A program made the position numbers and the translations under genes. From Octopus vulgaris (taxonomy: Eukaryota), in contig OX597824.1 in NCBI GenBank assembly GCA_951406725.2, positions 67,456,001 to 67,520,000 of the forward strand: a stretch of 64,000 nucleotides of DNA, written 5' to 3'. This document shows, piece after piece, positions 2,572 through 20,714 of the stretch. The notes below the pieces were generated by a model that was not told where the DNA came from, made no database searches, and saw only the letters and a list, made by a program, of their open reading frames with translations. Within the stretch, counting starts at the first letter, position 1; each line of letters begins with the position of its first letter.

Positions 2572-2710
2572 TAGTAAAAAGGAAGAATTGAAGATTTGAG
2601 CTTATAGTCAGTTGGGAAAAGCACCATAAGACGAACTGGGAAAGATGAAAGCATCGCAAGTATCCAAGTTGTGTTAGAATATTATCGATGTTGGTCGGAG
2701 TTATCTCCAT
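2572..2710 (-). CDS. SLC22/organic cation transporter-like first coding exon, copy 1 (whole exon about 2572-2761)
   Basis: Encodes [46 protein letters not shown] plus 1 nt, resembling the SLC22 N-terminus (D-x-I-L-x-x-L-G-x-x-x-x-F-[QH]) and TM1. GTGAGT donor at 2571-2566; acceptor tttcatgtAG at 2763-2762. Confidence 0.75.
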
Positions 2711-2864
2711 AATCAGATCAATGTTGTACTGGCTTAAGAACAATGAGTGAAGTGTAGATGGCTACATGAAATATGATAATAATGACCCGGGGATACAGAA
2801 GTCGACAGTGTGGTGATAAGACAGACAAACTGGCTAAATAGATAACGGAGGTTTAAATAAAATT

Positions 2865-3016
2865 ATATCTATCTATCTATCTATCTATCTATCTATCTAT
2901 CTATCTATCTATCTATCTATCTATCTATCTATCTATCTATCTATCTATCTATCTATCTATCTATCTATCTATCTATCTATCTATCTATCTATCTATCTAT
3001 CTATCTATCTATCTAT
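2865..3016. repeat. (TATC)n microsatellite
   Basis: Read directly. Confidence 0.98.
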
Positions 3017-3655
3017 CCTCTCTGGTCAATCTCTCATCAACGTCTTCAAGTACCACTTAAAAAGGAAAATGAGAGTAGAGAGGCAAGTTTTGTCTAGCGA
3101 ATGTTTTAAAAAAGATGGGTGAATGTAGCAAGGATGGCACGTATGAATGACGAAGCCACCTTGAGCATAATCCTATGAACCCAGAAAAAGAAAACAGAGG
3201 GTTACCCACTTGCAAACAAATGTGGTAACATATAACAATATTGACCAAGGTTACCGTGGTCTTTTTCGTAGGCTTTTCTTCCCACGGATAAACCTTACTT
3301 ACTTTCCCCTTTACACCATATATCATAACACTATGATACACGATCCCTATTGATCGTTTTTTTCCCCTCTTCCCCTTTTTTTCCCCCTTTTTTCTTCTTT
3401 TTTCATTTCTCTTTTCTTTTGTTCCGTTTCCTTTTCTTTTTTTTCTTTTTATTCTTTTTTTTAATTTTATTTATTTATTTATTTAAAAAAAATTTTTTTG
3501 TTCTTTTCTTCCCTTTTACAATCCCTCATGATCGAAAACCTACGCCACCCCTTTTTATTTCTTTTGTTTTTTGTTTTTTTCATCCCCCAAAAGAAAAGCT
3601 CTACCTTGTAACTTGTCCCATCTGTGTGCGGCCCTGTGTGGCCAATAAAGAAACT
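3017..3655 (+). mobile_element. 5'-truncated Tx1-clade LINE 3' end embedded in (TATC)n
   Basis: Homologous to 17090-17660. Ends gccAATAAAgaaac then (TATC)n, with (TATC)n also on the 5' side. Confidence 0.8.
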
Positions 3656-4599
3656 TATCTATCTATCTATCTATCTATCTATATATCTATCTATCTATCT
3701 ATCTATCTATCTATCTATCTATCTATCTATCTATCTATCTATCTATCTATATGTATGTATGAGAATGGGTTAGTATATACAATCGCAAGTATATATGTAC
3801 CTATACATACACTTTTCTCTCGATATATATGCCGAACTCGACTGAGGAAAGAAAACCCTGAAGGACGCGTCCTTGTTTTCTTTGTATCGTCTGTCTGGAT
3901 GTTTTGTTGTCCCTCTTTGTATTACGTAACCGTATGGATGTTTTGCGTTCTTGTCCCATTTTTGTATTATATATACATATATATATATATATATATATAT
4001 ATATATATATATATATATATATATAGTTTAATGAGAGCTTGTTATTAACAATAACATTAATACAGAAGGAAAGTGTAGTGCTCGTGGTGAGCTATATTCG
4101 AAATAATATCATTATGGAGGCAACGTAGGCGAAGTTTAAAAGAACATAATTGAAATACGCATCGAAGATTTATATAAATACATATATTTTCTATAAAATG
4201 GACATAACATTCCAAAATACATAAATATATATAAATAGACAATATCAATGCAATGCATAAAACACGATTGAATTTAAATAAAAACGATTGAATTTAAGAA
4301 AATATAATTTGTAATTACATTTAAAATCGTATATTGTATGATGAAATCAAAAATTTAACTTGAAATGATTAAGTATTGAAGACATATTAAAACCAACGAA
4401 GGAAAAATATAAGCATCATATCTACAAGCCGTTTCAGAGATGTGCCAAGGAATATGACATATTTCATATTATTAATCAAGGCACTCTCCTCATCAGGATG
4501 TTACACAAAGTTCATAAATACATCTATATACCGGGCCTGTCTCCATCAGCGGCAATGTAGAATATTAGGATAATATGGCATTAAGCAAGATGTATGTGC

Positions 4600-17660: not shown

Positions 17661-18539
17661 ATATCTATCTATCTATCTATCTATCTATCTATCTATCTAT
17701 CTATCTATCTATCTATCTATCTATCTATCAGTTTGTCTGTCTCTGTGTCTGCATTTTAGCGTCTATCTACCAACATACATTGGGGTGACTTAACGTAGCG
17801 TAGGGGAGCGGATTGGTGAACACTAGGGGGTAGCCGAAGAGAAGAATGATAGTCATTGCACCACTAACACGCTCTATTAGAACATAGAGGCGCTGTTGTT
17901 AAGGTATTATCAACACATAGAACAGAAACGACACTTAGATTATAGAGGCCACACACATCGGAGTAGACAGACCAATCTTCAAAAGAAAACACGAATGGAA
18001 GTCTAACACTCTCCTCTAAACTACACAGCATGATGGCTATGAGATAAAAGAAAAAAGATACAAATAGTATAATACATAAACCTCTCCCCCCTCCAAGGAC
18101 ATACATTTACATACCGAAGACAGAATGAGACAAAATTAGAGAAATAAATAAGGAAATAAAAAAGAAACTAAATAAAGGACACGGGTACAAGCAATAAAGT
18201 AATGAAGCCCAGATATACACACACAAAACATACATACAAAACTTATTGATACGCGTGCGCGCGCACACAGAGATAGAGATGCAAACACATGTGTGGATAA
18301 GGGTATGTACAACAGAAATACAGAGTGGACTAAACACAACAGAAGGAGACACATGGGATGAGGAATCGTTGAATGGATCACAAAATGTGTGACGAAAGAT
18401 TTCAGACATAGGACACTAAAATAGGAAAAACAATAAAAGTGGAGTGAAGAACGAATAGTATGTGTATGTTTCTTTAAGTGAGGGTGAATATATTGTCATT
18501 TAGTTAGTGTTGTTCTGAGGTCTTGAAGATGCCGTCACT

Positions 18540-19530
18540 TATAAACGATGGAATTAAGCGTGCAAAGAAATTAGACATTAAAACATTAAGGTGAAGGAAA
18601 CCTAACGCAACACCTCATCTCAAAACGCTTCTGTATATATCAACTCACAATCCTGTAAACAATGTGGCATACAAAACTATTGTACAAAATCTACCTATGT
18701 TCACCAGAGACCCCAAAATGAACAACATTCTGAAAACATAAATTCATCAAATGCCAAAAGCAACACAAATCGTTGAAAAGACACACAACAACTACGAAAC
18801 CAACGTTTAAAAATGTGGACACCCAAACTGTAGAACATTCCCCAACCTACTGGAAAGCTTGGAATTCCTATTCAAACAAGGAGAAAGGTTCATAACTAAA
18901 ACCAGCTTCACTTGAGCTTTCGAGAATCTAATTTATAACTTGCTCAGGTTGTGGACATAACTATATAGGACAGACAAGTATGAGACAGAGAACCACACTA
19001 CACAAGGAACAGATCTGGTTCCCTCAATACACACAGATTCCTTTGAGTGAACACATAGACATGTGTGCAGGGAATATCCAATCAAATTTCACAGTTTTCC
19101 CCATCTACCAGTGCAACGAAACAATTTCTATACAAGAAAGTTTAAATAAAGAAAATTTGCTCATCGAAAAAATACAGAACACGTCTAAATATGAAAGCAT
19201 AACCAACTTTGATCTCAGTATATATTTTAATTCATGATCACATACCCATCACTGTATATGTTTCATCTCACTACTTTAGCTTTGAGTTTTTTGTGTATAT
19301 ATACTTATTTATTCCCTCCCCGAAAGATGAGCAATTATCTCCCTGTCCCCAATAATAACGATCACCAATTACATCCCCTTAGATTTTTATAACTGCTCAA
19401 TCATTCATTTACAAACTTCACACACAACATGAACTAAAATCTTCTTAAGAAAATGCGGAATTACAATAATTTCAATGTTATGATTAGTGAAAGCGAAACC
19501 GGTCGACAAACGATATAAAATATACTGAAA
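18540..19530 (+). mobile_element. Penelope-like retroelement 3' fragment (GIY-YIG region)
   Basis: CGHPNCRT, CSGCGHNYIGQT, QIPLSEHIDMCA; similar to 6661-7074. Ends near gcgaaaccggtcg. Confidence 0.8.
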
Positions 19531-20379
19531 AAAAAATCAAACATGGATGTAAAGTGAGTGCATTTTCCTTTTTTTAAAATTGTTTGCACATATATACACA
19601 CACGTATATATGTGTGTGAGTGTGTGTATATATATATATATATATATATATATATATATATATATATATAATGTTATAGTAAAAACCACAAATATTGTTA
19701 AGTACAGCTATCCAGAGTTTCCTGGCAAATATAATAATTTATTTCTCTATTTTTCGAACAAAAGCGTTCGCCAGTTGTCCTTTGAGCAGATGACGTTTAT
19801 ACAAGAGATATTCGTATACATAGAATGTCTTTTAACTTAGTGCAATGTTATTTTGGGACTTCGAAGGAATGATAAGTAGAAATATCATTTAATATCGTAT
19901 GAATTTACATAGCATGCATGTTGTTTGAGCAAAAAACTTATATCGATTATTGAAACGATGATCACTGATTAAAAAATGTAATATCGTCATCTTCAATCCT
20001 TTGCTCATTTGTGTGTGTGTGTGTGTGTGTGTGTGTGTGTGTGTGTGTGTGTGTGTGTGTGTGTGTGTGTGTGTGTATGTGTGTGTGTGTGAGGATGTGT
20101 GAACATATATATGCCTGCATGAATGTATGTATGCCTGATACCTGCATGTAGCATGTATGTATGTATATAGGTATGTATTTTTTCAGTTTTATTTCAAGGT
20201 TTTTTGTCAATAGAGAAAGAACCGGTTTCTAACCAAGATCCGAAGCTCCTTCATTGGAATTTCAACAACTATGTATGTATGTATGTATGTATGTATGTAT
20301 GTATGTATGTATGTATGGATGGATGGATGGATGAATGGATGGATGTCACAATCTGAAGACGTAACAGTTGAAAACTCAC

Positions 20380-20548
20380 CGCTGAAGATGTAAAGGTTAA
20401 GATTGCCTGATGCTACAAGTGCTGTGAGACACCAGAGCAGGAATTGTGATGTGTGGAAGTAACCTTTCGTTCCAAGCCCATTCATAACATAATCCACATT
20501 GACTGTAGCAGACCACATTTTGAATTGCGCCTCTTGATCTTTTTCCAT
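20380..20548 (-). CDS. SLC22-like first coding exon, copy 4, divergent (whole exon about 20380-20575)
   Basis: MEKDQEAQFKMWSATVNVDYVMNGLGTKGYFHTSQFLLWCLTALVASGNLNLYIFS plus 1 nt. It is 139 nt from the second Met to the GTGAGT donor (20379-20374). Strong acceptor ttttctcttccAG at 20577-20576. Confidence 0.75.
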
Positions 20549-20714
20549 ATTTTCTTTTGGCAGTCATCAGACGAGCTGGAAGAGAAAACGAACCGAAAAA
20601 TAATGATATGATTTCGCTCAATTCAGTACAGGTTAATCAAATCTATGGGGAATTCCATTCAAGCAGAGACCATTGTATCTTTTTATTACGCACTCGCATA
20701 TCTGAAACTTTCTA

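Follow-up and report, generated by a model that had tools for sequence, protein, structure and literature searches.

Six first coding exons arrayed in tandem ahead of one SLC22-like transporter body in Octopus vulgaris: a probable variable-first-exon locus

Can one transporter gene of an octopus exchange its N-terminus and first transmembrane helix (TM1) by drawing on alternative first exons? The question is raised by a window of 64,000 nucleotides from Octopus vulgaris (OX597824.1, 67456001-67520000; negative window positions lie to its left), in which a first-pass annotation had noticed four paralogous minus-strand exons and proposed that they may be joined to common exons lying farther left. 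The four exons are where it placed them, each measuring 139 nt from the aligned ATG to its last base (the lower coordinate in Table 1), and their open frames and GTGAGT donors were confirmed, but the count was too low: a sequence search with V3 detected two further copies, V5 and V6, beyond the left window edge. The array thus consists of six exons, transcribed in the order V1, V2, V3, V4, V5, V6.

Table 1. Features of the first-exon array (window positions unless given on the contig)
Feature	Position	Strand	Remarks
V1 first coding exon, N-terminal tail and TM1	20380..20575	-	ATGs at 20548 and 20518; donor GTGAGT after 20380
V1 5' side	before 20575	-	acceptor-like AG
V2 paralogous exon	9699..9888	-	ATG 9837; acceptor-like AG 51 nt upstream; donor GTGAGT
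Dispersed repeat abutting V3	6031..8100	-	at least 40 copies at 82-86%
V3 paralogous exon	5881..6030	-	ATG 6019; ancestral upstream DNA reduced to 11 nt
V4 paralogous exon	2572..2761	-	ATG 2710; homology to V2 and V5 in the upstream DNA
Intron leaving the window toward V5, V6 and nine constant exons	1..2571	-	
V5	67454225-67454087 (last base window -1913)	-	left of window
V6	67446858-67446720 (last base window -9280)	-	left of window

All six copies are open from the ATG to a phase-1 GTGAGT donor, and exon 2 begins in the matching phase; V1 has an additional in-frame ATG ten codons farther upstream, at which the public models start. Within the window, tblastn matches V1-V4 to one another as homologues (E values from 3e-7 to 1e-25, with 0.24 for the next best match), and a search of 264 kb with an HMM of the six turned up neither a seventh copy nor a decayed one (the six score 85-99 bits, the next match 5.8). 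The copies are spaced 3.3-10.7 kb apart and the DNA between them is mostly repeats. The 139-nt phase-1 layout that had drawn attention to the exons is present but not special to them; it is a family trait, since all 21 first coding exons of the surrounding gene cluster have it. The GTGAGT donor is confined to V1-V6 (6 of the 21), and a DNA tree unites the six in a clade that excludes the remaining 15 first exons (SH-aLRT 96.2, UFboot 98). Capture of V1 from a neighbouring gene was considered and rejected: the protein tree has no resolution on this point (UFboot 66-69) and the DNA tree is against it.

The predicted common exons left of the window exist as a single set of nine (exons 2-10), whose coordinates descend from 67430129 to about 67397670 (in window terms, -25871 to about -58330). 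Homology search over the window and its left flank counts one exon 2, and tblastn, blastn and HMM searches found none of exons 2-10 between the six first exons, in agreement with the earlier reading that no later transporter exons lie there; in genome-wide single-sequence searches the next exon-2 match is at most 51% identical. An arrangement in which each first exon owns a body, which the first-pass annotation had named as a refutation of its proposal, is excluded by this one body. Its product has MFS_1 and Sugar_tr domains above the Pfam cut-off and an MFS fold with a long loop after TM1, and its best PDB matches in sequence and fold are SLC22 members (OAT1 at E 5e-58), so that by homology it is an SLC22-like MFS transporter. 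The likeness to OAT1, OCT1-3, URAT1 and OCTN2 lies in these domains and matches, at about 20% identity; the octopus protein belongs to an octopod-specific cluster and, as far as tested, has no orthology to any named human SLC22 member.

The gene is the left-most in an SLC22-like cluster extending over 814 kb, with 12 further near-complete genes and one partial gene, and cluster genes span about 20-55 kb. Exons 1 and 2 are doubled in two cluster genes, exon 2 being broken in one of these, and window 56552-58350 and 171486-174117 each hold an orphan exon fragment. In the tree the gene body falls together with P0005 and P0006, both complete Argonauta genes (support 86/89).

Public protein models, all of them predictions, show how first exons are joined to this body. 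P0001 (O. vulgaris, labelled SLC22 member 8-like) and P0002 (O. sinensis) begin with a sequence identical to V1, and these two as well as P0003 (O. vulgaris) join V1 to exon 2; the third exon is present in P0002 and skipped in P0001 and P0003. The V1-exon 2 join in these models spans 46 kb holding five nearer homologous exons, and that the predictor bypassed all five to reach V1 suggests read support for V1, and also V1 dominance. In O. bimaculoides, P0004 (isoform X1) has a V2 orthologue joined to the same exon 2; its first exon shares 33 of 46 amino acids with V2 (UFboot 95) and has related upstream sequence. Two exon types, V1 and the V2 orthologue, are therefore found on one exon 2 across three Octopus species, never two within one species. 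The swap proposed at the outset is borne out in its single constant set and in these two types on one exon 2, but not as a swap within a species. That only one copy is ever spliced, which had been named as a refuting outcome, agrees with the O. vulgaris and O. sinensis models, both species carrying this V1 and showing V1 only. Two protein searches and an HMM scan of representatives found no V2-V6 protein joined to exon 2 in O. vulgaris, only V1 models; as a test for such isoforms these searches are weak, because one of the protein searches also missed P0004. A protein search found no O. bimaculoides protein with a V1. Isoform X2 of that species (P0017) was rejected as an array member, having a different first exon without TM1 and without match in the array, and P0032 and P0034 were rejected as V2-V6-bearing isoforms, being repeat noise or unrelated. 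Current annotations give one isoform and so conceal the five other exons.

Sequencing runs were searched with V4, and no match among the runs listed was recorded as RNA. Four of the 20 listed runs were examined over the 316-nt stretch around V4, a check that carries no weight on expression either way: runs X4 and X8 had no contig there, and run X1, guessed to be RNA, had one unspliced 151-nt contig of depth 2 (2661-2811) that ends before the donor. Run X3, which bears another organism label, has contigs with two exon variants, the intron continuing and both upstream types represented; one variant matches V5 at 13 of 13 listed differences.

The six copies are three old lineages, V1, V2 and V3-V6, all intact. 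The dN/dS values between copies, proposed earlier as a check, could be computed for part of the array: V1 is at synonymous saturation against the remaining copies, and V2 against V3-V6 gives dS 0.8-1.2 and dN/dS 0.32-0.56. V3 and V4 are identical at 132 of 138 nt, with flanks 3.5% apart; other pairs differ by 10-51%. Among V3-V6 at least 30 substitutions have accumulated with no stop and no indel, the ATG and donor being retained; the chance of such intactness under neutrality is about 0.011, a rough figure calibrated on the paralogous flanks, with their 321 substitutions and 27 frame-shifting indels. The changes are unevenly placed, with four replacement and five silent changes in codons 1-25 (pN/pS 0.23) and 18 replacement and three silent changes in codons 26-46 (pN/pS 1.6, not significantly above 1, p 0.32). 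Thirteen of 21 changes fall within a 10-codon cluster (p 0.0008, for a stretch picked after data inspection), and TM1 divergence exceeds the flank rate in three of four pairs, a comparison that recombination confounds. All six helices are hydrophobic. The V2 orthologues are 72% identical, below exon 2 (58/67) and the next 234 residues (213/234), and in the V2-P0004 pair the branch of V2 is 0.06 long and that of P0004 0.28.

The DNA upstream of the copies is of more than one origin. V2, V4 and V5 have mutually homologous upstream DNA. In V3 and V6 the ancestral upstream DNA was replaced by the same repeat insertion, whose end both exons abut 11 nt before the ATG; judged by motifs in its broken frames, this repeat is probably the 3' end of a Penelope-like retroelement. 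Pfam named none of its three open frames, and the Rfam matches on 5800-8400 were all sub-threshold miRNA hits driven by microsatellites. A TATAAAA about 120 nt before the V3 and V6 ATGs was rejected as a gene promoter, the site lying within a dispersed repeat.

How an exon would be chosen can be approached from the acceptors. The first-pass annotation had credited three window copies with an upstream acceptor; V1 and V2 keep theirs, with scores of 9.1 and 7.2 in a home-made matrix trained on sites chosen for pyrimidines, but the AG of V4 at -51 is outside the two best sites of that exon. For comparison, the best site in a random 137-nt stretch scores 5.9 at the 75th percentile, 8.3 at the 90th and 9.8 at the 95th, and none of the other 15 first exons in the cluster exceeds 5.3. 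Acceptor scores are thus fair in two of the six copies and weak in V3-V6, and no leader exon was identified. An upstream copy spliced through the AG at -51 into V2, V4 or V5 meets a stop; one spliced through the AG at -29 into V3 or V6 would remain in frame. The common docking pairing of Dscam1-type loci was not seen: in a crude test with 10-mers, none of the 40-nt bins in the intron between V6 and exon 2, or in the 20 kb above V1, pairs with the flanks of all three lineages. Between mutually exclusive splicing from one common leader and a choice by separate starts, some of them followed by a short non-coding leader, we lean slightly toward the latter.

Residues 1-56 of P0002 come from V1, and the first long helix of a structure model of moderate quality (mean pLDDT 63.5; 74 over residues 31-50) comprises residues 30-57, from which the variable exon is predicted to supply the N-terminal tail and TM1. 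OAT1 Met31 and Asn35 align with exon positions 36 and 40, and OCT3 Phe36 aligns weakly with position 40. In the available portions of the two structural reports, Met31Ala lowers the glibenclamide affinity of OAT1 and Asn35 hydrogen-bonds glibenclamide (PMC11827633), and Phe36 of OCT3 is one among six pocket residues that differ between OCTs (PMC9640557). The copies carry only A, I, V or L at positions 36 and 40 and show larger changes at 30-35 and 37, so a change in substrate preference is only predicted; should the isoforms exist, we consider such a change almost as probable as its absence.

Three other readings have to be weighed against a locus that exchanges first exons. In one, the main rival, each species has a single active first exon, V1 in O. 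vulgaris and the V2 type in O. bimaculoides, and the others are silent, undecayed leftovers of unequal crossing-over. The annotated models, with one TM1-bearing exon per species, are what it expects; partial duplications are common in the cluster, V3 and V4 are young by their flanks, and a repeat insertion precedes V3 and V6. It has more difficulty with three lineages that predate the split from O. bimaculoides and are all intact, and with six unbroken copies out of six when the neutral chance is already low for V3-V6 alone. The shorter V2 branch in the orthologous pair and the uneven changes, with a silent-rich tail and a replacement-rich TM1, also argue against silence, and we hold this reading to be rather unlikely.

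The exons could also be orphans of whole tandem genes whose bodies were recently deleted, which would explain old divergence with intact frames. Whole-gene duplication is the usual mode in the cluster, as the 12 further genes attest, two full Argonauta genes belong to the same lineage, and the V1 protein is about as similar to the first exons of other genes (up to 23 of 46 residues) as to V2-V6 (13-19 of 46). Against this, exons 2-10 have left no trace between the copies, the spacing is far below the span of a cluster gene, duplication around V3-V6 involves blocks of exon size whose flanks match, and V1-V6 stand together in the DNA tree; lost bodies are accordingly very unlikely. Least probable is an assembly artefact, with alleles or repeats placed in tandem. 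The near-identity of V3 and V4 would fit it, but the remaining pairs are too different, the flanks form a mosaic rather than one doubled haplotype, and the two exon variants (one V5-like) and both upstream types in the contigs of run X3 speak against it.

We propose that the six TM1-coding first exons are spliced singly onto exon 2 of the one nine-exon body, which would yield SLC22-like transporters with TM2-12 in common and a predicted difference in a helix walling the substrate cavity; the array itself grew by exon-sized tandem duplications, with recombination between copies. The locus is probably a variable-first-exon locus with a UGT1A- or protocadherin-like layout that swaps a pocket-lining helix, and it is likely that two or more of the six exons are used within one species; use of all six is improbable. 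A fuller version, in which an independent cephalopod UGT1A-style locus has tissue- or stage-specific starts and up to six TM1 versions, the young copies recombine and diversify under selection, and a retroelement drives two of them, is rather doubtful. Substrate discrimination in SLC22 is not yet explained, and known pocket residues lie in TM1; if the proposal is true, six natural TM1 versions on an otherwise identical body would form a helix-swap series for SLC22 specificity. The 13-gene cluster would also allow two routes to diversity to be compared, a first-exon array in this gene and whole-gene duplication in the other members.

Among known systems, the nearest functional analogy is NKCC2 (SLC12A1), in which exon 4 variants tune ion affinity. 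Homologous exon swapping is also the hallmark of tandem duplicated exon substitutions, for which six copies are many. In the parts consulted of a survey of such events in human and fly, 40 of 236 human events are N-terminal, membrane and ion-transport proteins are enriched, and ligand-binding residues are conserved between the swapped regions, whereas TM1 is the most variable part in octopus; the same parts mention no SLC22 case (PMC9741552). A search of mainly open-access literature listed no report on this locus or on duplicated SLC22 first exons.

In layout the locus is closest to arrays of variable first exons: tandem first exons of one phase and a shared constant set are both present; on the use of different exons, V1 and the V2 orthologue stand in models of different species, and the runs examined around V4 show no junction. 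With UGT1A, GCNT2 and the clustered protocadherins it shares tandem paralogous first coding exons of similar length and frame on common constant exons; as far as the available part of the source goes, those loci likewise grew by birth and death, diversified at ligand-facing sites and are termed vertebrate-specific organisations (PMC1885805), whereas the octopus is a mollusc. The vertebrate loci have a large variable exon that encodes a whole domain, each with a proven promoter, whereas the octopus exons encode 46-56 residues and one helix of a 12-helix transporter. Octopus protocadherins are described as clusters of multi-exon genes, and constant exons go unmentioned in the portions seen of the two reports (PMC7811963, PMC6339937). 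Among invertebrates, the chelicerate sDscam genes also join tandem 5' cassettes to constant exons through alternative promoters and splicing, according to the accessible part of that study (PMC4835542), but their cassettes comprise two or four exons, encode Ig domains and belong to a cell-adhesion receptor unrelated to the octopus transporter. If our reading is true, the locus described here would bring a mollusc, and with it a polytopic transporter, into the small group of genes with variable first exons.

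At least 13 SLC22-like genes stand in tandem on contig OX597824.1 (G000:C11:67390000-68150000), and the transporter gene with six putative alternative first exons is the left-most of them; our literature search found no paper on this cluster. Further exon-2-like matches lie on the same contig at 68.09, 68.15, 72.5, 59.5-59.7 and 7.5 Mb. In the right-most, partial gene of the cluster the first exon (G000:C11:68064965) carries ATT where its relatives have ATG.

The third exon of the main gene is intact in the genome and present in the O. sinensis model P0002, and is skipped in the two public O. 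vulgaris models, P0001 and P0003; an annotation error, or an isoform that lacks the exon, probably accounts for its absence there.

Exons of SLC22-like genes in and around the window (G000:C11, contig OX597824.1)
Feature	Coordinates	Strand
Third exon, main gene	G000:C11:67428959-67428715	-
Gene with doubled exon 1 and exon 2, one body	G000:C11:67859975-67915443	+
Adjacent gene with doubled exon 1 and exon 2, one body	G000:C11:67922508-67977148	+
Orphan exon 8 (late)	window 56552-56698	+
Orphan exon 9 (late)	window 58255-58350	+

No earlier exons were found for the gene represented by exons 8 and 9 at window 56552-58350, which are an orphan gene fragment, located shortly ahead of the next full SLC22-like gene (G000:C11:67522294). 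Elsewhere in the window, positions of about 27100-32000 are rich in microsatellites with mirrored matches, and the GC skew flips near 30000; the mirrored matches and the flip together suggest a large inverted repeat.

In one of the two genes with doubled exons the first exon 1/exon 2 pair is open, and in the other gene the exon 2 of that first pair is split; the doubling is possibly a second, two-exon cassette choice. In O. bimaculoides, isoforms X1 and X2 (P0008 and P0022) of a neighbouring gene share their N-terminal part, and their C-terminal parts are homologous yet different; either the gene has alternative sets of 3' exons, or two genes have been fused in the model.
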